Shown: one piece after another, positions 1 through 64,000 of the stretch | Numbering within the stretch: position 1 is the stretch's first letter | Layout: each line of letters opens with the position of its first letter | Source of the DNA: Amoebophrya sp. A120 | Taxonomy: Eukaryota; Protista; Dinoflagellata | Reading direction: 5' to 3' | DNA length: 64,000 bases | Assembly: GCA_905178155.1 (NCBI GenBank) | Contig: CAJINV010000018.1 | Coordinates: 254,479 to 318,478, forward strand | Notes under the pieces: model-generated | Told to the model about the DNA's origin: nothing | The model's input: only the letters and a program-made list of their open reading frames with translations | Database searches by the model: none | Program-made: the position numbers and the translations under genes

Positions 1-3000
1 CAAGTTTTTCGCCTCATTCGTTAGTTTTCGCATGTCGAGCATGTCGCAAGAAAAAACTGTTTCACTGTAAACTTGTAATGCAGAAAATGTATCTGAGAAG
101 TGTTTGTCTTGCTACACATGCAAGACAGTGGATTTTTGGCTGTGTTTCCCTTAGGAATCTCGCATAGCAAACTTTCTCTCTGGTGTAGAGCAAACTTGTG
201 ATGCAAAACTTGCAAAATCGTTACAGTGAAACACTTTTTTCGTACGATAGAGCAGCTCCCGCATGTAGTTCTGCTCGAGATTCGCAGCCTGGCAGGTCTT
301 GGCCTCCCCGATTTTCAGCAGCATATCCTATGTAAAAACGTCCCCACCCCGCCATAGTCAAAATGGGGAATCGGCTAGACAAATCCACAAGCCTTGGCTG
401 TTTCGCATGACAAATTTGGACGCGTACTGTAGTGCTGTTTGAGCTAGCTCAACAGCATTACAGATCTAGGACCTGCTCATGCTGATTAGAGCATGACAAA
501 TTTCAAAACAGCATGAGAAAACGCTCCTCATTGGGCTCCGCATGAGAAACATTTTAAGTATGCAGATATGCATGACAATTATGGTGTGGGGACGTTTTTA
601 CACAGGATACAGCAACCCAGCGACATACTGCATAACCTGAATCTCATAGGGCGGCGAAATGTCCTTCTTGTGCAAGAGGGGAGAAATTTGCAGTTCCTCA
701 TACGGGCAGCGGAGCGGGTCCTCTGGAGGTTTTGGGACGCCTTCTGGTTCTTCTGGTACTTCTGGTTCTTCAGCGGGGGGAGCAAAATCGTCTTTCTCCA
801 GAATCTGCTTCAAACTCCCGAGCACCGAGCGTTTCGGGCCAGCTAGCTTCTTCACCCGTGCTAAAAACCTCTCCGCGGAAGCGAATTCCGGGCTTTTGTT
901 CACCTCGTCTAGGAATTTGACGAACTCTTTTTGGATTACATCTGTCTGCCACTTCTCGATGCCTTCCTGCTTGTGTTTGGAGACGAACAGATTGTGGCGG
1001 TTCATCCACCGAACCATGATATTATACGTGTCCGAGTCGTATCAACTGCAAATATGTCTGGGTCTGGAAGGATGCAGCTTGTGATGCTGGATTTGGCTTG
1101 TACAATAAATCTGTATTGCATTAACAGTAAAAGAGGTCCAATTTTTGCTATGCGGAGAAGGCATTTCTCATGCGGTATGAGCATCAAAAAGCCCTCGCAG
1201 AATCTCTGGTGCTAGGGCATGCATCACAGACCCTATGGCTCATGCAAAATCTGCATGACAAACTCCTGCATTCTTCCAGACCCAGACATAATATTGCAAT
1301 GCATAAGTCGTCATTGATGGGCGGTAGCAGTTCTCCTCCGAGCTCTTCTGCTTTTTCGATTTTCTTCTCCTTTTTTTCAGTTTTTTCCGGGTCCTTTTTT
1401 TCCAGCATTTTTTTGACCATGGCGACAAGTTTCTCCGCCTGGACTTTTTTGTGATAATACACCCCCTTGTTCTCGTCCACAAAATCGGTCTCGATCGCCC
1501 TCACACCTTCCTGCAGAAGTCTCACAGCCTGCTCCGCACGACCGTCCGGAAGACGATCGTTCTCATTGTTATCTTTCACTATCAAATGCAAATACGTCTG
1601 GGTCTGGAAACTTGTAATGCTAGGGGAGTTAGAATGTGTAGGCCACAAATGATGGCTCAGCATCACAAGTTTCTGAGCTTCTAAGTCTTGCCTATTCTGC
1701 ATGACACGCTGCGTTTTTGCATCACAGGAAAATAGGGCCTTTGGGTAACGCGCATGACAGACTTAAGAGTCTTGCTAGCCTAGCATGACAAACCTTGCAC
1801 TTTTCCAGACCCAGACATCTTTGCAATCCATATTCGCCTTCGCGAGCCAATTTGCGAGCTTGGCTTCGTAGATCGCGGAGATCGTCTGGTTGATGCGGGT
1901 GATGTATCCCAGAGAAAAAAGCTAGCATGGCATATTTGTAATGCAAAAATAAACACACAAAGACAAAAAAATTTGTCATGGGCGGCCCCATAGCATCCTG
2001 TTTAGGATATGCAAGACAGATTTTTTGTGTATTTATTTTTGCACTACAAATACGACCGGCCTGCTTTTTTCTGTGTGATATGATGATCTCGTGTTCTAAC
2101 CTGTCCAGCTCGGTGGTTTCTGACGTTTCGTACTTGAAAGTCAATCTCTTCTCCCATAAGTGCATCGCTTTCCGCATCACTTCCTGCAGTTTGGCCAACG
2201 CTTTCTCCCCGTTCTTCTCTGCAAATTCCTTCCTCTGCTTCAGCAAAGTCGTCACCCTTTGCTCGATCCAGCTTTGCAAGTTTATCGGAAGTTTTTCGTT
2301 ATTCACATTCGGGTTTTGCATAATTTTTTTCACCAGCTTGCTGTTCTCCACCTTCGGATACCCGTCGCTTCCCTTCTCCGGCTTCAGCCATTCGTTGATT
2401 CGTTTTTGCTCGCCGGTGATTTTGTGAATCAAGGTCCAGATGTATTGCAGTGAAAAGTGCCCCCCACCCCTGAAATTGCAAAATTTGTGATGCGAAGTTT
2501 CCAGATGAAAACTTTGTTTCTGTCATGCATGGAAGGAGTATGGATCTTTCTGATGCAGAGTCTAGGCGTGTATCGCATCGCTTGCATGACAAGCGCCGCT
2601 CGTGCTGGGGCCTTTTGCAATACAAATTTTTGCTACTCACGATTGGAAACCTGTGATGCTGATAGATGAAAGAGGGCGAATGTTTCATTTGGAAAGGTTT
2701 GCAATACAAATGCGTTCACGTTCGGGAGTGGGGGCATTTTTCATTGTAATAAGATGTTCCGGAGCAGCCCCGGTTCTTTTTCTTTGCCCAAGAAGTGGGC
2801 GGCGAAGAATTCTTCGACAGCTAGTTTCTTGTCGATGCCGCGGAGGAACATCGACTGAATTTCGTTCAATTGCTTCACAAATTTGTTCGTCTCACTGATC
2901 CACTATCCCACAGAAAAAGACAGGCGGGGCATATAGTTTGTAATGCAAAAATCCACTAACAAAAACATCTGTCATAGTGGTCAAACCCATAGCGACGAGC

Positions 3001-6000
3001 TGTTTAGGATATGCAAAAATGCAGGTCTTTTTGTTAAATTCATTTTCGCATGTAATACAAATTATATGCCCTGCCTGCTGTCTTCTTCAGTGGGATATCC
3101 ACTCGTCGTCATTCAAGCCGAATGCTGTCTCCCACTTGTCCTCCTTCACCGTGTCATCCTTCATCGGCGTATTTAAAATTTCCTTCGCGGTAGCGGGAGA
3201 GAACTTCATGTATTGGTCAATCTCCTTTGTCCGCATAATGGTAGAAGTTGTTGTACTCCCTTGTTGCTGTTCTTCCAAAATACTCTCCGGAACCTTCTCA
3301 ACCTCCCCGTTTTCAGTAGGTTCAAAATTCGCGGAGAGTTCGACCAATTCCGAGTCCTTAATCGCGTCGGCCGCGGCAATTTCCAACAATTGCATCTTGC
3401 GTTGCAACACTTGGTGCGGCGTTTTGTTCATGCCAACGCAGGTCGTTTCGTAGAACTTCTTGTAGTGCTGCCTTAGCGAGAGAGCGATCTGCGACAATTG
3501 CTTCTCGTTGGTGATTCGCTCGATTAACCGTGGAATCACCGCTGCGAGTCGGTTTTCGTAGTTATCGCCAGTCGATTCGGAGACTTCCAGCTTCAAATCG
3601 GCGAGGACTTCCTGGGGAATGTTGTCGATTTTCTCGAGGATTTCGCTGACCGTCGGGAGTTTCCCCGTCAAGGAAGAGCCCGGATTGGTCTTCTTGCTCG
3701 CGGCTTGCAAAACCATAAACAAATTCTTCGGCGCCGATGGACTTGTTACACTTCCCCCGAGCACCGGGAACTTCTCCGCTTCACAGTTCGGGTATGACAG
3801 TGCACAACTCCCCCTCCCCTTCATTTGTATAGCACGAACGGCAATACAAGCATCAGCAAGAATGCCGGTTTTGCATGACAAATTTGCACTGGAGTTTAGT
3901 GCTATTTGGGCTACCAGAACTTGTCATGCAAACAGTGCCACAGGGCAAAGGGTGGACTTGGCATTTTGCATGACAAATGAGGCGGAGGTGGAGTTGTGCA
4001 CTGTCATATCGGGTCGAGGTCGTCACAAGTATTACGGGACGAGGAGCTAGACTGTGTGCGGTACAACTTCCTCGCACCGGCGGAGGAGCTACCACTACCA
4101 CCAGCACTTTTCCCCACTACGGCGAATCTGGAGGAGACAGTCAGTTCCTGAATCCGCAACGCGATCTCCTTTCTCAATTCCATCTTTCTCTTCGCAGTCG
4201 CCAGAGGAACCCGAGCGTTGATAATCTCCTCCGTCGGACACTTGCTGTCTAGCATCTTCAACCCGCGCTGCACCAACGGGTGGTGAGAGATCCGGTCGAA
4301 CTCCGAATCCAGCCACTTACCCGCGGAAGCGATCAGCGGCCGTTTGTCCGTGCTTCCGGGCAACAAGCGCCTGGATTTCGGGTTTTTCGTGCCAAAAGCC
4401 GCCACGAAAATTTGCCGGAGCTTCTTGCAGGTGAGATCTTTGCCTTTCGGGATCTCCTCGAATTCCGCTCGGTCGGTTTTCCAAGTGTCTGCGGTGTTGA
4501 GCAAGACCTGTTTCGCATCGTGCCACGCTCGCGCGGATTGGTAGAATTGCTTGCTGAGGATCAAGGAGGTGGAAGCGAGGTTAGTTCGGGCCTCTTTGTC
4601 TACCAGGTTCACAATGTTGTCTACGATCCAGTTCGGGTGGCTTCCCCTGGTCTTCATCGCAGTCACATCGAGCACCTGGTCGAAGAGGTCGCTCCAAGCC
4701 ATCGCGCTTTTCTTCTTCCTTCCTTGGTCCAGCAACTTCTTGTGCGTTTCAAACGCTGGCAGTAGTGGTTTCGTACACTTCTGCAACTTCTCTCCTGCTA
4801 GTTGTTCGTATTTGTCTGTATTCGGATTTTTCTTCGCGTTTTCTTCCGCGTGTTCTCTCAGCGTGTCCCACACCGGAGCCATTTTCAGAATGTGCTCCTT
4901 GGCGATAGGATCTTCGACCGTGTTCGCGGTTTCTTGGCTGTCAGAGGGCGTGAGAAAAATGTTCAGCAAGGACTCCTATCAAATGTAAAAATGTCTGGGT
5001 CTGGAAACTTGTGATGTTTGGCGGCGTCTCATGATGAGGCCACAAGTGCTGGCTCAGCATGACAAGTTTCTGAACTTCTAGGCGTTCTTGCCTATTCTGC
5101 ATGACAAACTGCGTTTCCGCATCACAGAAAAATGGAGCTCTTGGGTAACGTGCATGACAGATTTAAGAGTCATGCCAGACAAGCATGACAAACATGCATT
5201 CTTCCAGACCCAGACATTTTTGCAGTTGATAACTCTACCAGATGGGGTGGCACCTCCGTGCTTTCGTTCTGCTCTTGCAACTCCCACCACCTGAACAGTA
5301 TCCCAGAGAAAACAGCTGGCAGGGAATATTTGTAATGCAAGAATAAATACACAAAGAAATCTGTAATGCATATTCGAAGCAGCATGCTATGGGGCCACCC
5401 ATGACAAATTTTTGTGTGTATTTCTTTTTGCATTCCAAATATGCCCTGCCAGTTTTTTTCTGTGTGATAAACAGCAGCTGATACCACAGCAAAATCCGGC
5501 TGTAGAAGCTCTTCGGATCGTCAAAGGCGTTATCCTTCAACGTAATTTTCGCCTTTTCCTTGTCATCTTTCTTCACATACGGGTTGCAATCCAGCTTCAC
5601 TAAAGCGTTCGCCGGTCGGTCGTTTCCCCCCGTTTCCTCGATGAGCTTCAACCCCGGGCTGTAAAACGTGAATGCGTCGGAAGATTTGTCACCGACTCTG
5701 TTCAGTTTCTTCGTCGCACCGCTATGGATTGCAAATATGTCTGGGTCTCGAAGAGCGGAACCTGTAATGCTGTCTGCGGATTCTAAAAATATCTGTGTTG
5801 CATGAGCAGCAAGAGGAGTCAGTTCTTGGCACGCGGAGAGGGCATTTCTGATGCGTAATTGGCATCAACAAGCTCTCAAAAATTCTGGGATGCTAGAACC
5901 AGCATCACAGACAGCACGGGTCATGCAAAATGTGCATGGCAAGTCCCGGCTCTTCCAGACCCAGACATTTTTGCAATCCATAACCGTCCTTCCACAATAA

Positions 6001-9000
6001 GAACCCAACACGATCGGCACCGCGATTCTCCATCATCCTGAGTAAAAATGTCCCCGCACCAGAGTCAAGATGGGGATTTTGCAACACAAACCCTAAAGTT
6101 TTGGGGGCCACGCATGACAAGTTCTTGCAGGCTGTAGTGTAATGCAGTTTAGCAATGCAAGCCGCATAACAAATCCATCTTCTTATCCTGTTCACCGCAT
6201 TACAAGTTCCAAAGCACCACGATGGGAAATGCCTCTCATGGGGATGCGCGCTACAAATGCTCTTGTGCTTGCAGATCTGCATGACAACTCTGGGCTGGGG
6301 ACGTTTTTGCTCAGGATATCTATCGGTGCGTCGTCTTTTGGCCCCGCATTTTCATCGTCTCCGTCCTTCTTCTTTTTCTTGCTCTCACTCTTCTTGGATG
6401 GAATTTCATACAGCCGCGGCTTGTTTTGCTCATACTGCGTGCCCGGAATCGCCGAGACGACAATGAGATGGATTGCAAAAGTACCGCACTCGTATAAACG
6501 CATATACAAATTTCCTCAGCATGAGAGATAAAATTTGTAATGCGGATTTGCCTTGAGAAAAAGATTTGTAATGCATGATTGCAATACGAGAAATACGATA
6601 CTTTTGCAATGCATAAATGAAGCTGTCCTGTCGGTTCTTATCGGCGGTGGCAAGTAATTCCTCGCAAATCGCTTCCTTTGGGTCCTTGATATTCGCGGGT
6701 AGGTCGATGCGCTCGATTATCCTATGTAAAAACGTCCCCACCCCAGATGGGAAATCTGCTAGACAAATCAACCAGCTTTGGTTGCTGCGCATGACAAGTC
6801 TGGCTTCGTAGTGTAATCCTGTTTAGCTAGCTCCATCAGCATCACAGATCTAGCGTATCGCGCTGATTCGAGCATCACAAATTCCAGAACACGACTAGAA
6901 AATGCTTGTCATGGGGCTCCGCATGAGAAGAATTTTTAGCATGCGAACATGCATGACAGCAACGGGGTGGAGACGCTTTCACATAGGATATCGATGTTCA
7001 GCTTTAACTGATTGTTGTCAGAGGTTTTGTCAACATGATCCGAGTGCTGAAACAATCCAGCACCAGCACCACTCTTACTACCACCAGAACTTTTACCCGC
7101 ATGATCACTACCAGATCCCTGTCCGATTTTCATGGACCACACGGAAAGCAGATCCGCGGCAGAGACCTGCAATTCTGCGTTCGAAAGGTTTCCAAAATCC
7201 TTCTCGTTGTTCACACGTTGGTTCATGACGAACCCGGTCGTGTGGGCGAAGGAATATTGGTCTTGCTTCTTCTGTTCATCAAGAAACGTGTTCTTCCCAG
7301 AAATACCGGCATAGTTGTGCAAAAACTTCAACTATGAACTGCAAAAGTATGGTATCGTATTCGTATAAATGCATTACAAATTTCTTCAGCATGAGAAATA
7401 AAATTTGTAATGCGGATTTACCTTAAGAAAAAGTTTTGTAATGCATGATTGCAATTACTACGACTACGATACTTTTGCACAGGATATCAACACCATGTCG
7501 GATCCCACGCGCAGCGTACCGAGGTCGGAGACCGTGCCCGCTGTTCTATCAAAAGCAAAAATCCCCCCTCCCCATATCGAAGTGGGAATCTGTGATGCGG
7601 GATTTGCGTACACAAATCGGATTTGTCTTGCAGTAGAGGACTGCAGACAGATACAGAGCCGGACTAGAAGGGGTGTTTTGGCGTAGGCGCCTAGCAAGGC
7701 AGGCATATTTTCCGTAGGCCTTACAGCATTACAAATTGCCTGCAGAACGCGGCGGGGTTTCTGGATTTGCCCTCTAGCAATACAGAAACGATTTGTGGCC
7801 TCAAATCAGCATCACAAATTTTGAGAAGTATCCCGTTTTGGTATGGGGAGGGAGGAATTTTCCTCGCAATATGTTCCAGCATTCGATTGTCCATCCACAT
7901 CGTCCGATCCTTGTCCGGAGTGACCTCCTCCAAGCTCCGACTGTCTTTTCAGCATAATCGACGTAGCCAATTCCTTGAAGTGCTTGTTCTTTGCCCAAAT
8001 TCTTTCCCCGTTCAGAATCAGCTCCAAAAACGCGATTTTTCCGTCCTTCGATTGAAACAGCGGGTCCTCCTGCAACTCCTGAAGAGATTTCTTCAACACC
8101 AGCGGGTCCACCTGCAAGCGCTTTCCCGCTTCGTCGCGCTTTTCATACGCCTATCAAGTGCAAATATTGCTGGGTCTCCTGGAAGACGATTGCAAATTTG
8201 TCATGCTTGGCCGACAAGACAGAAAAGTCTGTCATGCTTGTTGTGCAGCTACAGTGTCACATATTTGTCATGCAAAAAGGCGATTTCTCATGCGATTATC
8301 GCTAGACATAGCCGCTCAGAAACTTGTCATGCGCAGCCACGTAATAGTGCAGGTTGCGCATCATGCGGTTATTAGCATCACAACTTTCCAGACTCAGACA
8401 CATTTGCAATGCATAACGCCGCTTGATCCGCGGCGGAGTGCCCGCGGCCCTCGCGAAGCAAATAGTGCAGCGAGTCTTCCCCGATGAACTCTGGAACGCC
8501 GTTCGTGATTTTAACCGCGTATTTTTCTTCCATACCGCTAGCCAGCTGGTTCAAGTGCGGCGAGGCAGCTGCGTGCAGCTGCCCTGCTGCCTGTCCACCG
8601 GAATGTTGAAGCAGCTCTGCATTCTTTTTCCCGGATTTCGAGAAGAACACCTCCTGTGCGAACATCATGGACCGCATCAGTTGAATGGCGGCTAGCAGCT
8701 GGTTGTTCGTGTCACTCTTCACCTTCGTCCACCAATTAGCCGGGGGGAGGCCGACCAAGCCGGAGTTTGTGTAGGTGAGTTTCACATCGGTGGAACTGTC
8801 TTTTTCAATCGGTTTGTTCGCGTTTCTCCACTTCTCAATTTGGTCGAAAGAAATCCCACCAGTGAAGCCGTCGTCCGCCAAACTGGGGCCGATGTTCACG
8901 TAGCGCAAGCTATCCCCGTGTTCGGACTTCTGCTTTTGCCGTAACAGATGCAGATCGCGATCGAAATCTTCTGCGCTGCCGCCAAACGCCGCTTGAAAAA

Positions 9001-12000
9001 CCTGCTCGTCTCCGTAGAGCTTCTTGACGAGACCGTGCGCCTCCCTCGCGTCCTGGAGCCTTTCCTCGCCGGCGAGTCTGAGCCGGTGGAGGAGAATGGA
9101 GGAGAGCAAGTGGGGCCTTTTCGCGACGACGTCCAGGGCCAGGAGCGAGAGGTTCGCGTACTTCCCTCGGTAATCGTCCATGGCTTTGCCCTTTTCGTGC
9201 TTCTCCAGCTTCTCCTGCAACTGTTTGTGCGAGTTCGTCTGCGAGGCGTTCTGCGCCGCCGTGTGCATGGAGGCTCCCAAGGCGATGCTGGAATCGGACT
9301 TCAGCGCGACGGTGTCTTCAAAAATTTCCAGCAGGTGCGCGAGGGATTCCTTCGACTTGAATAAGGCGGTTCTGAGTTTCAGAATCGGCTTCACGGGCTC
9401 GCTGCTGTTTTCACTCACGAAGTAGTACACGAATTTGTTCTATCAAATGTAAAAGTGTCTGGGTCTGGAAGATGCTGAGACTTGTCATGCATGTTTTGCA
9501 TGACTCAGGATGTCTGTAATGCACGACCTAGCATCACAGATTTTTAGAGGGCTTCCTGATGCCTACTCCGCATGACAAACGCCCTCCCCGCGTAGCACAG
9601 AATCGACTCCTCTTGCTGGTCATGCAATACAGATTTTTTGAGAGTCCAAAGTTAGCATCACAAGTTCCAACCTTCCAGACCCAGACATTTTTGCACTTGA
9701 TATGTTCTTTTTCAGCTCCTCGGTTTCTTCTTCCTTCTTTTTCGGGTCCATTTCCACATCCGCATTGGCATATCCTGTGCAAAAGTATCGCACAACTCGT
9801 ATTGCAATCATCCATTACAAATCTTTTTCTTAAAGGGAAATCCGCATCACAAATTTTATTTCTCATGCTGAGGAAATTTGCAATGCATTTATACGAGAAG
9901 TACCACGATTATACTTTTGCAATTCATATGGCATTCCCCTCCACAAATTTCACGTCCGCACGGTGGATCTCCAGCTCCGAAAACTGGTTGCACAAATCCA
10001 CGTGGTGGGGCAAGATGCTGAAGAACTTGTCAATGGTCGCGGTCTATCAAATGCAAAAGTGTCTGGGTCTGGAAGGATCCGAACTTGTCATGCAGATTTT
10101 ACATGGCCCGTGACGTCTGTGATGTATTCCCTGGCATCACGACAGATTTTCCGAGTGCTTCTTGATGCCTATTTCGCATGATAAATGGCCTCCCCGCGTA
10201 GCAGAAACTGGACTCCTCTTGCTGGTCATGCAATACAGATTTTTCTAGAGTCCGAAGTTAGCATCACAAGTTCCAACTTTCCAGACCCAGACATTTTTAC
10301 ATTTGATACGGTCTCCTCTTCGGATTCGTACGCGGTGAGAACAACCCGGCGAGTCTATCGTATTGAAACACGTTCCCACCCCAGTTTTGTAATGGAAATC
10401 TGCATGCTGAAAATGCTTCTCATGCGAAGCCACACGAGAAGCATTCTCTAGTGGCGTTTTGGGATTTGTCATGCTCCAATCAGCGTGATGTACTAGATCT
10501 GTGATGCTGCTGAGGTAGCTCAAACAGCACTACACTACGGGTCCAAATTTGTCATGCAAAACAGCCAGAACTTGTGGATTTGTCTAGCCGATTCCCCATC
10601 TTGACTATTGGGTGGGGACGTTTTTACGTAGGATAGGGTCACGTCCTTTTTCACGGTGAAATTCTCCTCGGTCACCACTTTCGGGTTATTGCAAGGAAAA
10701 ATCCCCCCTCCCCATACTCGGAACGGAAATTTCTCATGCTGAGTTGAGACCACAAATCTGGTCTGTCTTGCATAGTGGGCAATAAATTGGAGTCATTGGG
10801 AACATTCGACAGCCAATCTGTCATGCGCTTTTGCCTTCTGCAAACCTGTCTGCCATGCCTAACCGCAGGCCTTTTGCATTCCAACGAGGCTTAGAAGATT
10901 CCTCCAAGCGCTTCCTGCATTACAGCGCTGATTTGTGTACAGAAATCCAGCAACAGAAATTTTCTGTTTTGTATGGGCTGGTGGGGCTTTTTTCACTTTG
11001 ATACGGGTTGTACTTGGCGTCAACCGCCCGGCCGGTTAGTAATTTCAGCAATTTCTCCCGGGACTCAAATTTTCCGGGGAGCAGAATCGGCTCCGAAACG
11101 AATTTCCCCCCCTCTTCCCCCACAATCCTGCCCTTCCCGTCTAGCCGGACCAACGATAACGGCGTGATCGTTGTGGCTTGCCCCGGCACCGTTTGAACCA
11201 GCGTTTGTCTCTTCAGCGCGGCATCGTTGTCTTGGTACTTACACAGCCGCTTTCGCGTGAAGAGAAGTTTCCGCACCAGATTTCTCGGGAGCAGAACGCG
11301 CTTCCACTTCGAAACGTCCCCCTGACCGCCGTAGTCATCCAAGTGTGGACCGAGTTTCTTTAACAAGTGGTCAAACAGCAAGTACACGTCCTGCAGCTCC
11401 TGGTGCTTTGGCATCTCCTTCATGGGAAACGGGTTCAACAGTTTTAGGTGCTGGCTGGCACCGGCCAAAACTCGCTCCAAATTCTCCGCTATCAACTGCA
11501 AACATGTCTGGGTCTGGAAGGTTGGAACTTGTGATGCTAACTTTGGACTCTAAAAAACCCTGTATTTCATGACCAGCAAGAGGAGTCTACTTTGTGCTAC
11601 GCGGGGAGGGCATTTTTCATGCGGAGTAGGCATCAGGAAGCCCTCAAAAATCTGTGATGCTAGGTCATGCATTACAGGCATCATGGATCATGAGAAATAT
11701 GCATGACAAACCTGGCAATCTTCCAGATCCAGACACTTTTACATTTGATATCCGCCTCCAGCTTTGCCTCCGCCTGCGTTTTCGGCACGCCGGAAGTGTT
11801 GGCCGAGGAAATCGACTGCTCGGACGACCCACCGAGGCCTAAAGCGTTCACGCTAGCGGAAGTCGCGTCCAACAATCCTTTGCTGGCGAGTTCCAAGTGA
11901 GACAAATGAACCGTAGTTTCGTCGTTCAGTGACTGCTTGTACGCACTTAAGGACTTCTCCACCCGTTCCAACTCGCCGATCTGGCTCGCGTCGAGGATGT

Positions 12001-38212: not shown

Positions 38213-39542
38213 GACGAGAACACCGAACTGCTCATCAACTAGTTTGCTGCATGCGCTCCAGCTCCAGGTGGTGGTGGCCCGAATCACGCACCCAGAAATC
38301 ACGCACCTAGAATCACGCATCCACCACTCACACGCACCCAAAAGGTGCGTGTTGGGGGTGCGCGCGCGGCAGGTGCGCCGAGATGAGGCGGGCGGCCCGA
38401 TGAGGTCGGGGCCCGCACCGAGGAGCGCGCCGGGCTGGATTGGTAGGCCAACACAGATAGGCTAGGCCGAACGGCAACACGACCGCGCCAGGCAGTGCGC
38501 TAGCGACACCGGCGAGGGAGTGAGACGGGGAAAATCAAGCACCGCCTTGCGCGGGCTCCGACTTCGGCCGGCCGCGACCCCCGGGCCACCACCCACCGAC
38601 CGCCCCCCCGGAGGGACTTCGACCTCGGCCGGCCGGGGCCTCGGCGGGGGGCGGAGGCTTCGGCGCGCCGCCTCGCTGGCTCGAGCTTCGGCCCCCCACC
38701 ACAGAAATACACACCGAGGGGGGGCAGGGGCCGTTTAGGTCGAAGTCGAGTGTCTGTGTTTTCGAGCCCGCGGCAGTAGATTAAGTCCTGCGCTGTGGCT
38801 GCTGGATGAAGAATCCAAAACCAGCTTGGCCGGTCGTGGGCCCGAGTCGGTGACTTGGGGTGCGTGGCTGAAGTGTCTTGCCAGCCGCTCTGCTCCGAGT
38901 GGGGTTTCGTCCGCCGACAGGGTCACCACCGCGGACTCGCTTCCCCCGCCCGGCCAGACGCGGCCCTGGGGAAGCCGGGGGCGTCCAGGCACGGCGCCCC
39001 GGCCATCCATCGCCTCCCTCGAGACCGGCTCCGGTCAGCCCCGAGAGTCGGGAAGCGGTCGCGCTTGTGGCGCCTCCTGTAGCTTGTGGCGCCCACTGCT
39101 GAATCGTCGGCGTGTGTGCGCTCCACGACATGGAGAGCTGCTGTCAAAGCGCGCCGACGCTCAGGCCATTGGGCTTAATTACTTCAGGGGAGGGCGCCGG
39201 ACTTACTCTAGCACAGGCCGCTTCCCAGCTCATATCACCTCCGGGCTGCTTGACTTACTATAGCGAACGCCACGGCTCCCAAGCAAAAGCAGGCGACGGC
39301 CACGCCCGGCTCACAGTGTCTGTCCAATGGCTCGACGCGGGGCCACAAATCTGGCAAGGACACAACGAAAAGGGCACGGAGCCCGCGCTGCTCCTCGCCA
39401 TTTAATCTCGATCCTCGTTCTATTTACTTACTTTCCCCTGGTAGCTTCCCTTGGAATATCTACTACTTGAAAAAGTGCACTGCTGTCATTGCTTGACGAG
39501 AACACCGAACTGCTCAGCAACTAGTTTGTTGCACGCGCTCCA
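38213..39542. repeat. 48-bp direct repeats (38213-38260, 39495-39542) flanking a ~1.23-kb GC-rich insert
   Basis: GACGAGAACACCGAACTGCTCA(T/G)CAACTAGTTTG(C/T)TGCA(T/C)GCGCTCCA, 45/48 identical. Confidence 0.85.
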
Positions 39543-48760: not shown

Positions 48761-49595
48761 CGTCGGCTATTTCTTTTGAGTTCTAGTACTAGTAACCAAG
48801 GAAGCAGGTGCTTCCATTTCTCCCTCTGAGTGCGCTTCTCTTGTGGGCTACTGTGCAGGAACGATGAAGACCGGACAGCGGAAAGCGAAACTTTATGCAA
48901 AACACATCAACAAGAAGCAGGAGTCCGGTGAGACTTTTTTTGTTCATCTTGTACTTCTAGGTAGCGCCAGCACTCCAACATGTCGTCCCTCTTGAAAATC
49001 AATACCCTGGCGGGTTCGGGAAAGCAGTAAGTATACAACTCCACTCGCAACATGAGATTTTCCGACCCGGTGAACTGTGCCTCGAATCAGCACCAGTTTA
49101 CGATGCATCAACAAGAAAGGTTGTTGCATATTACCCGGCAAAGTCGAACACCGGGACAGGCAAGTAAGACAGATACATAAAAATAGCACAGCCCTGCACC
49201 TCACTTTGAAATTTCAAACGTGGTATGCATATTTTTTACTTCACGAACTTGATGAAAACTACAGCCGAATCTTTCATTCTATATTCGCCTATCAAAAAAA
49301 CGACCACGCAGCCAACGCTTTCACCATAGCGCAGTGTTAGAAGAACTGACGTACTGTAGTCAGCTGCATACTGTAACTGTTGCCTTGTAGTTTGTTTCCA
49401 TTCAAAGGATGCCGTCGTGTTCCATTCAAAGCGATGCTAGACGCTGCCGCACAGGTCTAGTGCTAGATGATTGTTTAATATTTCCGTTGCTCTACCAAAG
49501 AAGTGGTTTGATGTCGCTGGTGCCCTCGAACAAGAAAGATTCATGTATACAATCGATGATCCTTGTAAACATCATGTATACTCTTCCACCCTCTC

Positions 49596-54229: not shown

Positions 54230-55897
54230 GGTCGTGTGGTCGAGCTAGATAGGGACGTCGAGATAGTTAAATTTTCTTGGAAGAAAATGCTCTGTGGTCG
54301 GTGCGTCGAAACAGACGCTGCTGGGAAGATCCACTAATGTAATTTATCAACGTGTCGCATGAATTGTGAAACAAGAGGAAGACTTACTTTCGTGGTCTCG
54401 ACAAAATCAAGTGCGATCCAGGTACTATGGAAAGCGTTCCGCCGTTCTAAGTTGACCTCCCTTGTATCGTATCAAAGCAAAAGCTTCCAGCTTCTACGAC
54501 AATTGGTACGAGTAATAGATCGATGCTTCGTGATGTTTCCATTTTTAATATTCGTCCAACTGTTAGAGTTAGTCAAAGTCGCCTGACAATACTTTGAAAA
54601 CAAAAATGTGATTGAAAGCAAAAAAAGGATCACAAAGATGTTCTGGCCGGAATTCTCTTACCGGGATAATTTCTCGTGCTTACAGTTGAAGATCTCTGCT
54701 GAAGATCATTGATGGGTCGTGGAGCGGGCGTGGCAGAGTCACACTTCTTTTTCTTTGCGGAAGTAGACGGCGCAGCGGATCTCGCAAACAAAAGTTCTTC
54801 GTTTTGCATTCTTCGGGAGCGAGGAGTCAACATGAGCATATTATACATTTTTGCTTGTAGGCTACAAAACGAGGGAGATGTTGATGTCGGTTTTCTACCT
54901 CTGGTCGAACACCCGCTGTATTCACAATCTATTGGGAGCATTGGCCACGAGTAGAAAATTCTTCAGTCATCAGATATTGCCCTTGAAACGGTTGACAGGA
55001 CGTTCTTCACAAGATCTTCACTTCGAGCTAACTTTAATGTCTCGACGTGCGAAAGGGACAAATCCACGCGGATAGATACCTTTTCGCACTGCTGATGCAT
55101 ATATTATATCGAAGTACTTATCGAATGTGTAGTTGCCTGTTGCACACACATGTTTCCCACGTTGGAAAAAACCTATTTCCAGACATGAAAGTGCGGCGCA
55201 ACTTTGTTTTCCTAACAGCAAAATCGAAGTTTAGAAATGCTGCTTCTCGTTATATTTCTGGAGGAGTCTAGTACTTCGCATCGCATTTAGACAACAGTGG
55301 AATTATTATGCGTCGACTTCCCGATCTTTATCTCTGACGAGCAAACAAATACAGTATTCGTTATGTGTTCGTGCAAGAATAGAAGTAGTGCGCCAAGTAG
55401 AATTGTAAAATAAGCGAGTTGTGCCGTATATCAACGCACACGCGATCCTTAGATTTGATTTACATGAAGTTTTCGCTGTTCGATGCAGGTGCTGTCTATA
55501 ATTCTTTTACAAAAGGCAAAAAAAGATCGTTAGGTGTCTTCAAACGAGATTCTTTCTGTGCGCTTTGTAAAAAGGTATCAACAACATCATTGGTTGCCGA
55601 GTTAACAGATATAATGCAGCTCATTGTCCACGATAAAAATCTTTAGTATAATTCTTCTTTCTATCAAAATATCTCTGAGTAGTTTATCGTGCGTGGATTA
55701 GATGAGAAGTTTCAAAATCATACACGTACATCAAAAAGCTTTGTTGAAAAACAAGCAGAACCTCCGAGGCTGCAGCATCGGGGAACCTGCCGTGACATAA
55801 AACGAGGACGCCAAGGAAGGGCGAGAAATTAGGTCGAGAAAACTTGCAAGGGGCAAATTGATAGTAGATTTTTGTTCGAAACAATACATGATACTGC

Positions 55898-56093
55898 GAT
55901 TAGAGTTGAGGTATTTCATCTAGACATTTTGATAATGTGATTAGAGTTGAGGTATTTCATCTAGACATTTTGATTGAAGTTTGTTTGTTTGTTTGTGTTC
56001 ATGCGTGAAGGTGGGAACGCGTTTACACACCTTTTTTCCTCTAGCGCTATGAGGAATTTGATTAAAGTTGAGGAATTTGATCTAGACATTTTG
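55898..56093. repeat. 36-bp repeat (2 exact copies, 1 degenerate) and a short GTTT microsatellite
   Basis: GATTAGAGTTGAGGTATTTCATCTAGACATTTTGAT at 55898 and 55939; degenerate copy at ~56060. Confidence 0.8.
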
Positions 56094-56564
56094 GTTCTGA
56101 TAATGACAAGATAAGAAGAAAAATCTCAATTATTTCCGTTGTAGTTTATTCCGAATAGCGATATCCGCTTTTTGTAGTTTTGTAGAAAGGCTATTTCATC
56201 TGCATCTGCACACGCCGGTGGGAGTATTTTGATGTCCCAGCATTTTGCTTCCGGCGAAAAAAAAAGCAGAAAATATATATAAAGGTGCTAAAGAGCGTAG
56301 GGGTAGGTGCAATACTGACGGCTCCAATGTGAATCACGACCAGCATCAGACCTACACATCAGATACTAGCACCTGGGTTGCATTCTTTTGTTTTTTGGCG
56401 TGCATGCGTCCCCTACATTTTGCAGGGTTCGACTTTTTGTCGAACCTTGTGGGGGAAAAACATCGCCATCATAGTGTCATCAGCATGAGGTCCTCGTGGG
56501 ACATCAACTGCTAGGATTTGTTATATGCGAACATATTTTCCTTTCGATTTTCGTGTGGATACTA

Positions 56565-59500
56565 TCAATTCGGTTTCCACCACCCCACATGTGGAACAAT
56601 GGTGTGCGCCGCCACTTCATCCCGGGTCCAGCGCCTCTGGCGATTCTGCCTCGGTGCAGCGCCACTTGCGTTCGCGGCGTGAAAGCCGGCAGCGGTCGGG
56701 TCCACCGTGGACATCTTCACTAAGCCCAGGTGTTTCTTCACCATGCGCAGTTGCGGATTGTGCTTCAAGTTCCAGCGGTCGGCCCCGAGATGGGTGTTTT
56801 CCGCGACGAGAATAGCCTCCTTCAAGAAATTCGCATAGGAAAACCCGGTGATCTCACTGGACCCTGTATCCTGTGCAAAAGTGTCGCACTCGTACAAATG
56901 CTAACGCAAGTCTTGATCTTGTTTCCAAGGCAAATCTGCATTACAAAATTCATTTGTCATGCTAAGGAAATTTGTAATGCATTTATACGAGTACGATACT
57001 TTTGCAGTTCATACCCTGGAGTGTATTGCAGCGTTTGGGCCGGGGTGGGCTCAGAGCCTGGAGCGGAGGAGAGCGGGGAGACCTGAAGTTGTTTTTTTGA
57101 AGGGAGGTGGATTTTGCAGGAACGGAGCCTATGGCTTTATCTGCAGCAGGAGGAGGAAAGAAAATTATACCAATAAATTATGCAACATGACCGATTCAAT
57201 TTGGGATCATGTGGTACTCAAGAACATATATTTCAGAAATAAATGTTCGGACTTTCACGTCCTATAATGCAACATTTCAATGAAATGTTGCTGCCTCTAC
57301 AAATAAAGCATACGTAAAAAGAGCCTACACATCTATCAAGGTGGAGGCAGCCCGCCTGCTAGACAGATTTAACATTTCTGTCATCTCGTCCGATTATCAA
57401 TACCTTAAAGTCCCCGTGCTTCAGCAGCCGCTCCACCGCGTTGTTCTCATCGTCTCCGAGCTCCTTGGACGCCGTCCCGCCCAGCAGCACCTTGTGCCGC
57501 TGGATCGCCTTCCTCAACCCGCCGGCGGACCGGGACAGAATCGTTGCTTCCGCGAAAATCACGGCTCTTCTCCGCACGTCCACGACCACCCCGACCTGTT
57601 CCAGCAGAGAGGTTATCAAATGCAAATATGTTTAGGTCCGGAAGATTGCAAGATTTGCCACGCATATTTTGCATGATCCATAATGCCTGTAATGCATGGC
57701 CTAGCATCACAGATTTTCAGAGCGCTTCCTCATGCCTATTCCGCATGACAAATGCCATCTCCGCGGAGCACAAAATCTATTTCTCTCACTGGTCATGCAA
57801 TACAAATTTTTTTCGAATCCAGAGACAGCATGACAAGTTTAGAATCTTCCAGACCCAGACATTTTTGCATTTGATAGAGGTCAAGTCCTTCTTGTACTGC
57901 ACGTACGAATCATCCGCCCAGATCCTGTCGTCCGCTTTGGGCCGGTGCAGCGACGTATGAATTGCAAAAGTATAATCGTACTCGTATAAATGCATTACAA
58001 ATTTCCTCCGCATGAGAAATAAAATTTGTAATGCGGATTTGCCTTAACCTTAAGAACAAGATTTGTAATGCATGATTGCAAAAATACGAGTACGATACTT
58101 TTGCACAGGATACGACGGCAATGTCCTCGACTCGTCCCGAATCTGCTCCGTGTGCCAGGGGGACCGGTGCACAAACTGCCGCTCGATTTGCTCGGGGTCG
58201 TATTTAGTACTCGCAGTGTGGTCCAACACCGCGGGATCCCAGCTCTGGTGGAAGTTCCAGTACTCGTAGAGCGCCGGGAAAATCTTCTCTTTCCCCTCTT
58301 CGCGGAAGAGTTCCTGCGCCTGCTTTAGCTCCAAAGCACCGGTCGCCGGGTACCAGCATTTGTTGTCCGAAGAAGCAATGCTGTTAAACCCTAAATTGTC
58401 GGTGATGAAGTACTATGCATGGCAAATATCAGTCTGGGTCACTCCTGGATAATGAAACTTGTGCTGCTAGTAGTTCCTGAATGGCAAACGCACTTCTGAC
58501 ATATGCAGCATGACAATCTTATTTCTCTCCGCTCCCACTTGTTTCGCTTTCCGCATGGCATGGCAAACTGCATTTTTGCATGACCGACAGGAGGCAAGGT
58601 TGTGTGGTCCCTGCGGATGCATTTTTACAGATTCAAGAGTTATGTGCTGGGACAAGCATGATAAAGTTGCATTCTTCCAGACCCAGCAGACTACATATTT
58701 TCACTTGATAAATATTCCCGAAACAGCATCTCCTTCTTCCTTTTCGGAAGCTTAAACGCCTGTTCCCCGGAGTGGCACTGCTCAACAACACCGCTGTTCG
58801 AGGTGGAGACTAGCTGCGCCGTGAATCGTGCCGCCTCGATGTCGGTGACGAAAATTAGTTTCTCTTTCATCTCTATGAGAGTGCACAACTCCCCCTCCCC
58901 CTCATTTGCGTTGCATGAACAGCAACACAAGCGCTGGCAAAGATGCAGCTTTTGCATGACAAATTCCGAGGAGACTGTAGTGCTGTTTTGGATTCCCGAA
59001 TCTGTCATGCAAACAGCGCTAACAGGCAAAGGGTGGATTTGGAATTTTGCATGACAAATGAGGGGGAGGGGGAGTTGTGCACGTTCATAATCTCTAACTG
59101 CCGCACCCGCTGCCAATTGTTCCAGATGTCCGTGACTTTCTGCGGGAGAAAATCTGTGGCGATCACCGGGATACCATCCTTGTATTTTTTGCCCAGAAGA
59201 GCCCGGTTCAGATTTTTTGTGTGCAGGTCCGGGTTGATTTCGTACAAGGTCTTATCCTGAGTAAAAACGTCCCCATACCAGAGTTGTATATGCAGATTTG
59301 CAAAGACAGGAAGACTTGTAATGCGCATCCGCATGAGAGCCATTTCCAATCGTGATTTGGAATTTGTGATGCTGTGAACAGGATGAGCAGACGAATCTGT
59401 GATGCAACTGCACTTGCTAGCATGCACTACACTGCAGAGTGCAACTTGTCATGCGTGACTCACAAAACTCCTAGGTTTGTGTTGCAAAATGCCCATCCTG

Positions 59501-62500
59501 ACTCTGGTGTGGGTACGTTTTTACTCAGGATAGGTTTCCAGGATCGTTTTGGCCGGGACTCCCTGCAACAGTCTATCAAATGTAAAAGTGTCTGGGTCTG
59601 GAAAGTTGGAACTTGTGATGCTAACTTTGGACCCTAAAAAAATTTGTATTGCATGACCAGCAAGAGGAGCCACGCTTGTGCTACGCGAGGAGGGCATTTG
59701 TCATGCGGAAATGGCATCAGCAAGCCTTCCAAAAATCTGTGATGCTGGTTCATGCATTACAAGCATCATGGGTCATGCCAGACAAGCATGACAAGCCTTG
59801 CATTCTTCCAGACCCAGACATTTTTACATTTGGTACGGTCTCTCCGTCTGCAACACCTTACGGAACATTCCTTTCTCTCTATCCGTCAGCCCGTTTGTCA
59901 TGTCATCCCACTGCATAATCAACGGCGCCTATGCAAGAAAAAAACTGTGTTAGTGTAACTTTTTTGGAGGAACAGAATTACAAATTTGCTCTACACGACA
60001 GAGAAAACCTGTCACGCGTGGCTCGTAAGGGAAAACACACATGAAAAGAGGACTTCATGGCTGTCTGGCATGACAGGTGTAACTCTGTTGCATGTTCTGC
60101 AACACAAATTTGCAATTACACAGTTTTTTTCTTCGATAACGCCAGGAAGTGGGGGATGCGCAGGAAGTCCGCGTTTCCGTGAATCCCGATTCGGCGGGAA
60201 ATCAGCGGCAGGGTTTTCTCCTGGTGCTTCTTGAACAGCCTATTCATCTTCTTCCACAGCAGCGCGCACTTCTTCGCCAAATTGGTCCAATGTTGCCTCT
60301 CAGCAGTGTCCTCCGGCTGGAGGACCACTGTGTAGTCCGCTTCAACAACACTACCGCGGCTATCAAATGCAACTGTGTCTGGGTCTGGACGAATGCAAGA
60401 GTTTGTCGTGCAGATCATTTTCGATGATCCATGAGATCTTCAATTTAACAGGATCTTCTAGCATGACAGATCATTCTGTGAGATCTCTATCATGCCTATC
60501 CTGCATGAGAAACTGCGTCGCTACAACTTGGTTAATAAATGTGGACACCTTTTGGTAAGCACGCAACACAGATTGATTTTTATGCGATCCAGCCTCAGCA
60601 CGACAAATTGCAGGCTACTTGCAGACCCAGACATATTTGCAATGCATAGCCGCGCATCGGCTGCCCGACGCTTCTTGGAGAGCCGCTCGCGGGGCTACCA
60701 CTAGCCGCTCCTGTTTGATGGGGACTTTCCTCCTCCCCATTTTCCTCTGCCTCCCTTGCTTTTTGCTCGGCTTCCTTCTGGGCCTGTTTGTTCATTTCCC
60801 GCATGAGTTCTTCGGCCTTCTGTTTGAGCATGGTCCGCCAGTAGCCAACAGCCTCGGTGTCATCTTTGTCTAGATTTAATAGTAGCTTGTCAATGTCATC
60901 CTCGTCCGGTTCAATGGAATCCGCAGCCGAGGAGGATCCTCCTGGGGGGCCACCCGCAGGTTTTTGATCGGAAGTAGAACCACTACCGCTGGAAGGCTTG
61001 TCAACACTCGTCCCTGTCACAGGTGCGGCTCCACTACTGCCGAACAGACTAGTCTTCACGTACCAGTGACTCGGGAAATCTGCGTGGATATCGACAATGG
61101 AATCCGGTTTCCAGGGCGATTGAACATGTTTTTTGAAAGCAGTTCTGACAGATTCTGCAAAATGGTGTATCCTGAGTAAAAACGTCCCCGCACCAGAATC
61201 AGGATGGGGATTTTGCAACACAAACCTAGGAGTTTTGGGAGTCACGCATGACAAGTTGCACTCCGCAGTGTAGTGCAGGTTAGCAAGTGCAGCCGCGTCA
61301 CAGATTCATCTGCTCATCCTGTTCACAGCATCACAAATTCCAATACACGATTGGAAACAAATGGCTCTCATGGGGATGCGCGTTACAAGTCTTCCTGTCT
61401 TTGCAAATCTGCATTACAACTCTGGTGTGGGGACGTTTTTACTCAGGATATGGTGCCGGGCGTAGTCCGGTAACTGCCACGACACCGGGCCTTTTTTCCC
61501 GAGATCGTTCAAAGCTCGTTGCTTGTCCTCGTCACCTCCAGGCGCAAGTCGTATCATGAGTAAAAATGTCCCCACGACCCCATAGTCAAGATGCGAAATC
61601 TGCTACACAAATCAACCACCTTCGGCTGTTTCGCATGACAGGTTTGTCGTCGTAGTGCAGTGCTGTTTCAGGTAGTTCAGCAGCATCACAGATCTAGTAT
61701 ATCATGCTGATTGGAGCATGACAAACACAAATCCCAAAACACGACTAGAAAAGAACGCTTCTCATGGGGATTTGCATGGGAAACATTTTCATCATGCAGA
61801 TTTGCATTACAAGAACCATGGTCGTGTGGGGACGTTTTTACTCAGGATAAGTCGGTAAACGGAGTCGAAAATTTTGTTTTGGTGGATTTTCCGGGAGTAC
61901 CAGTGGGTATCAACTGTAAAAATGTCTGGGTCTGGAAGAATCCAACTTGTCATGCTGATTTTGGATTCGCAAAAAAATCTGTATTGCATGAGCAGCAAAA
62001 AGAGTCCAAGTTTTGCTACACGGAAAGAGCATTTATCATGCGGTATAGGCATCAGGAAGCCCTCACAAAATCTGTGATGCTAGGGCCTGCATCACAGACA
62101 TTAGGAGGCATGCAAAGAAAATGTGCATTACAAACCTGGCAATCTTCCAAACCCAGACATTTTTACAATTGATAGTGGGTGTTATGGAAGGAGCCTTCGC
62201 GATCGGAATTCCGGAGCATCTGATCCGTTCCGTCGTTATCATTCGTGAAAAGTCCCCACGGTTTTGCTTTTTGATACGCAACGGACTCCACATGTTCTTC
62301 GTACTCTTCCTGAATGAACGACTTCTCCCGCTTCACTCCGAGATTCAAATGGTGGTCCGGCACTGCTTCCGCCCCCAAGGACATTCCCAGGTCGTCTCCG
62401 AACCCGAGCAGTTTCCGCATCTTAGTTGCGAACCGGAACATCAGCTCGGACTCTGTGTCCTCCGCTTTATGCAATTGCGACAATTCGTGCTCCGAAATCT

Positions 62501-64000
62501 GCACAGAGAACTGCAGCCAGAGAACTCTGTAGTCCCTCTCCTGCTTCATTTGGTCAAGTTTCTCTCGTTCATCATCATCCATTTGCGACGGACCTTTCGC
62601 GATTGATGTCGGAAGATGACTCGGGGCGGCAGAAGATGGGGCATGAGTATCAGCTTGTTGCGCCGCTTTATCAGGGACTGCAGTAGAGCTGCCGAACAAG
62701 CTCCCGGACAGACCCGCAAAGACGGAACTAGATTTCGCTCCACTGCTCGCGGAAAGATTTTCATATCAAAAGGAAAAAACCCCCCTCCCCATATCGAAAA
62801 GGAAATCTGTGATGCTGGGTGTGCATACACAAATCAGATTTGTCTTGCAGTAGAGGACTGCGCGCAGATTGCCAGCCTAGATAGGGGCCTTTTGGTGTAA
62901 GCGCCTCGCATGGTAGACGGCTGTCCTGTAGTCCTTACAACATCACAAATCGCCAGCATAGCGTGGCAGAGAGCCTGGATTTGCCTTCTCGCAAGACAGA
63001 CAAGATTTGTGGCCACAAATCTGCATCACAAATTTTCAGAAGATACGTTTTCAACAATATGGGGAGGGGGGATTTTTCTTTTTGATATTTCAGGTTCTTT
63101 CCTTTTACTTTCGATCTTCAGCAGTTCTGTGTTTCTCAGCTCGGACTTTGCGTTCAACCCCAACTGCCCGTCAGACACCGTCCCGGTTGGGCTTGTCCCT
63201 TTGATACCCCACATTTGCCGGAACTGCTCGTAGACGAAGCTTATCAAATGCAAATATGTCTGGGTCTGGAAGAGTGTAAACTTGTCATGCAGAGGTTCCA
63301 TGATCCATGAGGTCTGGAATGCGGGACTTAGCATGAGAGACTCTGCGAGGTCTCTGCCATGCCTATCCTGCATGAGAAAGTCCCTCCCAACTTGGTCGAA
63401 AGTGGATAGCTTTCGGCACTCATGCAACACAGATTCTTGTATGCTTCAGATTTACCATGACAAGTTACCACCTTCCAGACCCAGACATATTTGCAATTCA
63501 TAAAGCTGAACACCTCGGAGTTCGACTTGAAATCTCTTTCCGGGTCCGCTTTCTCTGATATAACAGTGCACAAATCCCCCTCCCCCTCATTTGTATAGCA
63601 TGAACGGCAGTACAAGCATCAGCAAGACTGCCGGTTTTGCATGACAAATTTCCACTAGATTATACATAGTGCTATTTTGGCCACCAGAACTTGTCATGCC
63701 AACGGTGCCAAGAGGCATAGGGTGGATTTGGTATTTTGCATGACAAATGAGGGGGAGGGGGAGTTGTGCACTCTCATATCTGAGCCTTTTTTCAACGCGG
63801 TCAGACCTTGATCCAGGGTTTCCTCGTAGTCGCGCCGGTCCGGGGACTCCTCCCATTTCAGGTCGGTCAAGGAGACTTATCAAATGTAAAAATGTCTGGG
63901 TCTGGAAGAATGCAAGATTTGTGATGCAGTTTTTCCATGACCCATGAGGCCTGGAATGCAGCACCTAGCATGACAAACGCTGTGAGGTGTCTATCATGCC
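56565..64000 (-). CDS. Large hypothetical protein, 3' part (5' end beyond the window); 16 introners plus 1 GT-AG intron
   Basis: Minus ORF pieces (62163-62699, 60595-61254, 58050-58334, 57359-57625, 56565-56897) are exons. The 3' junctions were checked in frame: KKDLT|SLLEQ, GDFK|VSPL, YTPG|SSEITG...WWKPN*. Confidence 0.8.
56867..57013. mobile_element. Introner family G
   Basis: TIR G; TSD CCCTG. Confidence 0.9.
57083..57403 (-). other. Canonical GT-AG intron (321 nt)
   Basis: TTAAG|GTATTG...CTTCAG|GTCT; removal keeps the frame (HGDFK-VSPLSS). Confidence 0.8.
57614..57876. mobile_element. Introner family A
   Basis: TIR A; TSD GAGGT. Confidence 0.9.
57956..58112. mobile_element. Introner family G
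   Basis: TIR G; TSD CGACG. Confidence 0.9.
58414..58710. mobile_element. Introner family A (degenerate)
   Basis: Diverged TIR A; TSD AGTAC/AATAT. Confidence 0.8.
58874..59089. mobile_element. Introner family E
   Basis: TIR E; TSD ATCTC. Confidence 0.9.
59253..59532. mobile_element. Introner family B
   Basis: TIR B; TSD GGTCT/GGTTT. Confidence 0.9.
59574..59835. mobile_element. Introner family A
   Basis: TIR A; TSD CAGTC/CGGTC. Confidence 0.9.
59930..60138. mobile_element. Introner family F
   Basis: TIR F; TSD GCGCC/ACGCC. Confidence 0.9.
60361..60648. mobile_element. Introner family A
   Basis: TIR A; TSD GCGGC/GCCGC. Confidence 0.88.
61168..61450. mobile_element. Introner family B
   Basis: TIR B; TSD TGGTG. 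Confidence 0.9.
61552..61849. mobile_element. Introner family B
   Basis: TIR B; TSD AGTCG. Confidence 0.9.
61908..62174. mobile_element. Introner family A
   Basis: TIR A; TSD GTGGG. Confidence 0.9.
62764..63087. mobile_element. Introner family D
   Basis: TIR D; TSD TTTCA. Confidence 0.9.
63242..63502. mobile_element. Introner family A
   Basis: TIR A; TSD AAGCT. Confidence 0.9.
63559..63778. mobile_element. Introner family E
   Basis: TIR E; TSD TCTGA. Confidence 0.9.
63878..64000. mobile_element. Introner family A (truncated by the window edge)
   Basis: Left TIR TATCAAATGTAAAAATGTCTGGGTCTGGAA. Confidence 0.85.

Follow-up and report, generated by a model that had tools for sequence, protein, structure and literature searches.

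The closest described relatives of the elements reported here are the introners of the marine parasite Amoebophrya sp. A120, of which Farhat et al. 2021 (PMC7789003) describe 29,850, with a mean length of about 240 nt. According to the available text of that study, their inverted repeat (IR) consists of TAT, seven looser nucleotides and AAA, and the direct repeats flanking them are 3-5 nt long (5 bp in the legend to Fig. S19). The ends are non-canonical, there is no internal transposase, and the introns have been RNA-validated against DNA; the splice motifs are described as variable, the position of the border is given as unknown, and a general transposase is ruled out. Here we analyse a window of 64,000 nt from A120, all genes of which lie on the minus strand and are interrupted by many short elements with terminal inverted repeats (TIRs). 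These share with the A120 introners their host, the TAT-N7-AAA inverted repeat, the 5-bp direct repeat, the occurrence in repeated families and the non-GT-AG ends. Since the same ends, repeats and genome appear in the published account, the system is already known in this genome: the window elements are the A120 introners, and the question treated here is the mechanism of their removal.

Both the host and the kinship with these introners had been proposed in an earlier note made from the sequence of this DNA alone, together with a comparison of exons to settle the taxon. That comparison agrees with the proposal - the first exon of one gene (gene 2 below) matches a single protein at 100%, CAD7970749.1 of A120. 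The window elements and the introners of Farhat et al. thus come from the same organism, have one annotated gene in common and show no difference in kind. What we add is that the variety of splice motifs is reproduced as an alignment effect, that one cutting register is favoured, and that an internal motif is common to all families. The literature we searched, in which subscription journals were mostly not covered, held no later mechanistic paper on the removal of A120 introners. A second description is that of Gozashti 2025 (PMC12130899), whose Dataset file 8 has 58 rows for A120, including TIR families of 149, 209, 252-260, 278 and 305-321 bp. In the available part of that source the A120 families are mostly assigned to superfamily 'Unknown', with mechanisms that vary and with target-site duplications (TSDs) called automatically at 2-6 bp; compared by description, the window elements have a single TSD length and a single end type.

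A symmetric scan of the window for TIRs with flanking repeats returned 105 candidates, 97 of them scoring at least 40, a score reached in none of three Markov shuffles (maximum 36.7). Seven degenerate copies were added through BLAST and a boundary search. The final catalogue comprises 111 elements in full (28,475 nt in all) and a further one truncated at the end of the window (63878-64000), which is the total of 112 given in the earlier note; its nine families are recovered too, except that the group of about 209 nt is divided differently here (Table 1). Read in transcript orientation, 107 of the 111 complete elements start with TAT and 104 end with ATA, and the 5-bp repeat is perfect in 80, in keeping with the statement that nearly all are of this type; in the position table, A stands at TIR positions 11-13 in 101-109 of the 111, at both ends. 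Short, bounded by TIRs, flanked by a TSD of fixed length, devoid of coding capacity and present in many copies, the elements have the features of MITEs (miniature inverted-repeat transposable elements). Their depth in sequencing run X1 is far above that of unique DNA, a figure that is not a copy number. The family A end had no match (0) in the viral contigs searched.

Some copies are irregular. A family B element (50063-50694) has grown to 632 nt through an unrelated insert with short internal repeats and still restores the frame, a family D element (44059-44517, 459 nt) contains an internal tandem duplication, and the element at 36356-36580 has three extra bases between repeat and TIR on its transcript 5' side, the frame being kept either way. 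One weak candidate that belongs to no family (56042-56163) was dropped from the catalogue; the stretch 55900-56165 lies between genes, is AT-rich, contains internal repeats and scores weakly as TIR/TSD-like.

Removal of each element together with one copy of its repeat restores the genes. With 67 elements taken out, positions 1-33500 become a single frame of 5521 codons that no stop interrupts (gene 1), and read-through would be possible for only one of the 110 elements in coding DNA. The reconstruction of gene 2 equals the deposited protein residue for residue at 17 of 17 junctions, whereas models with 3 nt more or 3 nt less give 17-21 differences; the A120 gene models were derived from transcript alignments, in a pipeline that used GT-AG-biased aligners. 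Gene 1 has an orthologue, P0002 (Amoebophrya AT5.2 g269.t1), that is 44% identical over 2167 aa, and the available text of Farhat et al. 2021 (PMC7789003) describes the introns of AT5 as canonical. Against this orthologue, exact removal scores best at all 11 well-aligned junctions (one tie) and at 25 of the 30 alignable ones (three ties). In a third gene, KH1 and part of KH2 match Pfam KH_1, and KH3, which two elements interrupt, can be aligned to KH1 once these are removed (E 1.6e-6).

The precise removal and the three rebuilt KH domains asserted in the earlier note are therefore upheld, the former by the frame of gene 1 and the protein of gene 2, and its estimate that elements make up about half of the genic DNA compares well with shares of 51, 59, 71 and 52% in the four main genes. 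Its gene totals need more care. The figure of 3135 nt is correct (1044 aa plus stop), that of 1251 nt is obtained only if an ordinary GT-AG intron in the KH-domain gene is removed as well, and that of 16554 nt is right as a length, from the ATG at 33489 to the window start, but does not describe a whole gene because the frame runs off the window.

Only mismatched repeats are informative on where within the repeat the cut falls; we call k the base of the upstream repeat after which it does so. The deposited gene 2 protein is reproduced for k = 3 or 4 only; its residues call for the upstream copy at bases 2, 3 and 3 and for the downstream copy at base 5. Junction 41630 needs k of at least 2, opposite to the preference of an aligner, and the other two junctions coincide with that preference. 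In gene 1, it is the upstream copy that agrees with the orthologue residues D (19266) and W (21110), at bases 1 and 4, which gives k of at least 4. All five informative coding differences from protein and orthologue fit one register, a cut after base 4, in agreement with the wording of Farhat et al. 2021 (PMC7789003, available text), which has the 5' end preceded by four bases of the repeat. We consider a cut towards the end of the upstream repeat probable, a single base ahead of TAT being the first choice and a cut flush with TAT the next. The 5' cut would then precede TAT by one base and the 3' cut follow ATA by four, for an intron of the form N-UAU...AUA-NNNN. An intron of the element plus 2 nt (NT...AN, one extra codon) was also considered and is ruled out by the deposited protein, the orthologue and the end spectrum described below; a stop-codon test by itself could not decide between it and exact removal.

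Elements outside the window were obtained by a pattern scan of JACKZZ01 metagenome contigs carrying the same families, with loci (L001-L068) chosen around family A ends; they amount to 438 elements in 526 kb. Transcript strand was assigned by a codon model; among 106 confident calls in the window it had the strand right in all 106 and the frame in 105. We used 251 of the 438, the remainder being dropped for want of a strand call (95), short flanks (63), lack of the motif (24; see below), length (3) or duplication (2). A GT-AG border is possible at any register in one of the 111 window elements and in 14 of the 251 outside ones, and GC-AG or GA-AG in nine window elements; the G[TC]...AG ends that define U2 introns do not characterise the window elements. 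No branch-point or polypyrimidine signal was found in the elements. Target sites and flanks have a composition near the coding background, and no clear target sequence preference emerged (best p 0.017 among 18 positions).

Published end frequencies can be accounted for. NT-AN ends are the commonest in Table S4 for A120, and the available data of Gozashti 2025 (PMC12130899) give NT 0.688 and AN 0.679 for A120 family 2 (n=9716). Modelling exact removal followed by an aligner that picks the most GT-AG-like register in the repeat, on 278 perfect-repeat elements, we obtained NT 0.707 and AN 0.663, with r 0.99 (5') and 0.95 (3') against the 16 published end frequencies of that family. No single fixed register fits the published frequencies at both ends. 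As the slide of the aligner within the repeat reproduces the published motif diversity, diverse splice motifs need not be real; the fit speaks for exact removal across the genome, and the true cut cannot be read from annotated ends. More generally, border tables published for introns with flanking TSDs can be aligner artefacts.

The two ends of the elements differ with respect to transcription. In 361 elements the first T at the transcript 5' end never deviates, whereas the mirror A at the 3' end does so 13 times (p 2.4e-4), with 0 vs 5 deviations in the window and 0 vs 8 in the independent outside set. This polarity holds although the elements lie in both orientations. The U at +2 is the U of spliceosomal GU donors. 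Were the cut to fall after base 4, the invariant T (361/361) would be intron +2, as in GUA donors freed from the G at +1; with k=5 it would be +1. The N-UAU context resembles the GUA donor of the ordinary intron in the window. As to pairing, 105 of 108 elements are predicted to fold with the terminal stem, and at TIR positions 4, 5 and 7 the arms pair in only 54-63 of 111 elements, far below positions 8-30, in both data sets.

An 8-bp motif, TGT[ACG]ATGC, is found on either strand in 111 of 111 window elements, with 333 copies inside elements and 2 outside them, and in 414 of the 438 outside elements. It points inward from both ends, the first copy lying a median of 43 nt from the end. Together with the shared ends and TSD length, this motif suggests one mobiliser for all families, and the earlier idea that a single rule serves them all draws support from the common ends, the motif and the polarity. 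It seems to us rather likely that one integrase-like DDE transposase mobilises all families; a relative of the IS3EU, Ginger and Copia integrases would bind the TAT-N7-AAA ends and the inward motif. In the available parts of PMC10045372 and PMC2836005, TA..TA termini are typical of IS3EU/GingerRoot, with a TSD of 6 bp, and Ginger2/TDD has TSDs of 4-5 bp and TGT ends. The window elements have the termini of the former but a TSD of 5 bp, and a TSD within the range of the latter but TGT-type ends in 2 of 111 only; no group is known to combine TAT ends with a 5-bp TSD. The integrase-like transposon group is still the best lead to the mobiliser. A120 family 38 in the available data of Gozashti 2025 (PMC12130899) is 808 bp long, with TA/TA termini, a 5-bp TSD and Copia/Gypsy-related coding remnants, and is labelled Ginger. 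For the mobiliser, which the earlier note described as left unresolved, a lead exists.

An autonomous partner with the same ends was not present in the 64 kb and 526 kb searched, nor was any long element with these ends and an open reading frame (ORF); 12 ORFs of two long elements are without Pfam match, as are two motif-bearing ORFs (2 of 120 long ORFs scanned). Two outside loci carry long TAT...ATA elements with perfect 5-bp repeats, L022:505-1608 (1104 nt) with a different TIR and L030:632-1465 (835 nt) with family A ends; no Pfam match came from the ORFs of either.

That the elements are removed at the RNA level we regard, from the literature and the polarity, as highly probable, and the transcript-based gene 2 protein lends indirect support to their absence from mRNA. 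As to how, we incline to a relaxed spliceosome that takes out MITEs of one lineage exactly, with the element ends as its guide. Small non-coding DNA transposons with 5-bp target duplications would be cut exactly from messages by a spliceosome that takes its cut positions from the element ends and not from GT-AG, and the ends would be joined, replacing U1 and AG recognition, by the long terminal stem or by some protein attached to this stem. The latter substitution, by a spliceosome rather than a separate enzyme, is in our judgement slightly the better supposition. A120 has retained almost the full set of spliceosomal proteins together with U2, U4, U5 and U6, with U1 undetected, according to the available text of Farhat et al. 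2021 (PMC7789003), and a tunicate provides a precedent for MITE introns removed by the spliceosome (bioRxiv 10.1101/2025.08.15.670264; PMC11282704, as far as available). The 'dedicated' excision system of the earlier note is the less probable option; the invariant U at likely +2 points weakly to a modified spliceosome.

A number of observations weigh against this reading. The alignment for the orthologue test was built on the exact-removal sequence, which favours exact removal, and RNA runs X5-X7 gave 41, 26 and 85 reads on 44001-64000 and no joint, too thin a coverage. The bound k of at most 4 comes from one junction (47296), where an aligner would favour GT anyway, and published family 2 is not matched by sequence to any window family. 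Of 96 mismatches between repeat copies 55 are synonymous, whereas a cut at a fixed place with one copy free to vary predicts no more than 39-50% (p 3e-4 to 0.10). Polarity is confined to position 1, positions 2 and 3 showing none (2 vs 5; 6 vs 2), and a branch A at -7, to which the window asymmetry at position 3 had pointed, did not recur in the outside set (2 vs 2). In ten of the 13 mirror deviations A is replaced by G, a change that a terminal U-G wobble pair would tolerate too, though neither the neighbouring pairs nor the stem as a whole favour wobble. G-U pairs are not in excess in the stem (104 vs 102 in the window, 251 vs 234 outside) and sense folds are no better than antisense ones (p 0.33), so selection on RNA pairing is not supported. 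Finally, no transposase was found among the elements and ORFs searched in the window and outside contigs, and none is reported for A120 in the available text of Farhat et al. 2021 (PMC7789003).

A possible but less probable account, which corresponds to the 'dedicated' system of the earlier note, replaces the relaxed spliceosome with separate, non-spliceosomal RNA machinery which, as has been proposed for euglenids, reads paired ends, cuts at fixed distances and ligates exons. The lack of GT, AG, branch or pyrimidine signals would suit such machinery, as would the predicted terminal stem, the poorly pairing outer TIR positions, reminiscent of a frayed end, and the undetected U1 (PMC7789003, available text); the rule in Euglena places the cuts at fixed spacers from a paired motif (PMC12501133, available part), and introns leave as circles, according to the part available of a review. 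Yet the stem has no wobble signature of selection on RNA pairing, the one polar base suits a spliceosomal +2 U, and a GT-AG intron with a GTA donor sits in the same genes. To our knowledge, no such separate removal enzyme is known here.

Rather unlikely, in turn, is a removal of exact length in which the cut floats within the 5-bp repeat, so that either copy may reach the mRNA. The synonymous excess among repeat mismatches, present in both data sets (19/34 and 36/62), is the main hint of it, and stops do not restrict any register from 0 to 5. Set against this, the five informative coding differences all fit one register, and the excess falls short of significance if the spectrum is biased from GC to AT (p 0.10).

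The internal eliminated sequences of ciliates are excised from DNA, and the empty form is present in DNA. Excision of this kind, or by a transposase, before or during transcription, would account for TA-bounded TIR ends, exact restoration and a symmetric, DNA-like motif, but we hold it to be very improbable. A 776-nt contig from run X1 spans element 44916-45134 without a difference, at a depth of 42 vs 43-44 for unique DNA; the run, which is DNA-like, covers intergenic DNA evenly, contigs drop rare variants, and the joints examined were 15 of 2468. Conservation is polar to the transcript although the elements insert both ways, and it weighs against DNA excision because a symmetric DNA process would not know the direction of the transcript; the RNA validation of A120 introns against DNA (PMC7789003, available text) tells against it as well. 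Dead genes, or rough removal through cryptic sites, would fit the lack of a junction read in the RNA runs but are practically precluded by the 5521 stop-free codons, the conserved orthologue, the match to the deposited protein and the spectrum fit.

Insertions are not evenly placed. Coding DNA, which is about 70% of the element-free sequence, holds 110 of the 111 elements, the only exception being a family A copy at 35637-35922. Of 103 distances between neighbouring sites in the window, 33 fall at 35-70 nt, against 13.4 expected, and one is below 20 nt, against 9.3 expected; in the outside set, whose loci were chosen around family A ends, the figures are 80 of 303 and 0 of 303. Element spacing has no significant nucleosome-like period. 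The codon phase of insertion is skewed outside (124/76/51) and even in the window (39/33/38), and the outside skew would mean 49% phase-0 introns if the cut falls after base 4.

More tentatively, A120 might use a splicing code without border dinucleotides, and we offer this as a possibility that is rather doubtful: a ruler that sets the cuts 1 nt ahead of the element and 4 nt beyond it in every family of one transposon lineage, a U at +2 as the one base required, and a motif-reading protein that replaces U1/U2AF and steers insertions to 35-70 nt from old ones. The reader of TGT[ACG]ATGC could perhaps be a domesticated DNA/RNA-binding domain of a transposase. If such a code were true, any insertion, in either orientation and at any coding site, would be instantly harmless.

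The genes themselves are listed in Table 1. Gene 1 had no Pfam match above cut-off in 10 exons, no homologue in a search limited to 2000 aa, and no relative besides Amoebophrya AT5 among 1.84 billion representatives; its protein of more than 5,500 aa has an N-terminal hydrophobic stretch. The product of gene 2 is likely a membrane protein. Gene 4 had no homologue in a search limited to 304-2000 aa, and the window has no tRNA and no Rfam match. A GC-rich island (about 60% GC, 38200-39500) without clear ORF is bracketed by a stretch repeated near 38215 and 39500, and is possibly another mobile element.

Table 1. Element families and genes of the A120 window (positions in the 64,000-nt window; orientations as numbers of copies in either direction).
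Feature	Position	Strand	Description	Orientations
Family A	1040..64000		42 complete copies, 239-297 nt, and the cut copy 63878-64000	22/20
Family A, examples	1040-1305, 9441-9702, 42005-42269, 63242-63502
Family B	324..61849		22 copies, mostly 258-298 nt	11/11
Family D	2443..63087		14 copies, mostly 309-328 nt	8/6
Family of ~209 nt	42..60138		10 copies	5/5
Family of ~149 nt	6467..58112		9 copies	4/5
Family of ~173 nt	1905..29565		7 copies	2/5
Family of ~216 nt	3793..63778		5 copies	4/1
Two singletons (I)	25785-26018, 32817-33068		same TAT...ATA ends, repeat and internal motif
Gene 1 (giant)	1..33489	-	>5,518 codons, 67 elements, 3' end beyond window, no known family
Gene 2 (CAD7970749.1 / GSA120T00014685001)	41127..48760	-	1044 aa, 17 elements
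KH-domain gene	49596..54229	-	416 aa, 10 elements and one GT-AG intron; 1251 nt after removal
GT-AG intron of KH-domain gene	52711..52868	-	ordinary intron (GTA...CAG), 158 nt, needed to join the frame
Gene 4	57362..63876	-	940-codon open frame, start beyond window, 14 complete elements
Exon-like frame	56568..57136	-	139 codons, one element (56867-57013); possibly linked to gene 4
Small exon-like frame	36226..36830	-	one element (36356-36580)

To the published texts and tables this analysis adds the proposed register rule, the aligner artefact, the polar U, the shared motif and the clustering at 35-70 nt. In place of a vague 'hypervariable splice motif', the window offers one rule that can be tested. 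The polar U and the motif are handles for finding the machinery and the mobiliser, and if it is the spliceosome that removes the elements, then it works without G at +1, without AG and possibly without U1. Three known systems, each compared through the available parts of its description, bear on this. The MITE introns of Fritillaria borealis (bioRxiv 10.1101/2025.08.15.670264; PMC11282704) likewise have TIRs and serve as genome-wide non-GT/AG introns removed by a modified U2 spliceosome, but they show preferred AG-AC and AG-AT ends, a target preference and an intact U1, whereas in A120 both terminal bases are supplied by a random target and U1 is undetected. The nonconventional introns of euglenids (PMC12501133) are similar in having paired ends at fixed unequal distances, TSD-like repeats and no GT-AG; their signature, N3-CDG...CHG-N5-6|R, differs from the N-TAT...ATA-N4 of A120, the lineages are unrelated, and neither the CDG/CHG signature nor the purine after the 3' cut is found in the window elements. 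The introners of Aureococcus, Micromonas, Symbiodinium and Polarella (Roy et al. preprint; Gozashti 2022) are also MITE-like and gene-biased, with a TSD at the borders, but carry or recruit G[TCA] and AG, which constrains their target and orientation; in the A120 elements neither target nor orientation is constrained. It is this absence of a splice signal at the border, together with insertion in both orientations, that sets the A120 elements apart from the introners of Symbiodinium, Polarella and Aureococcus.

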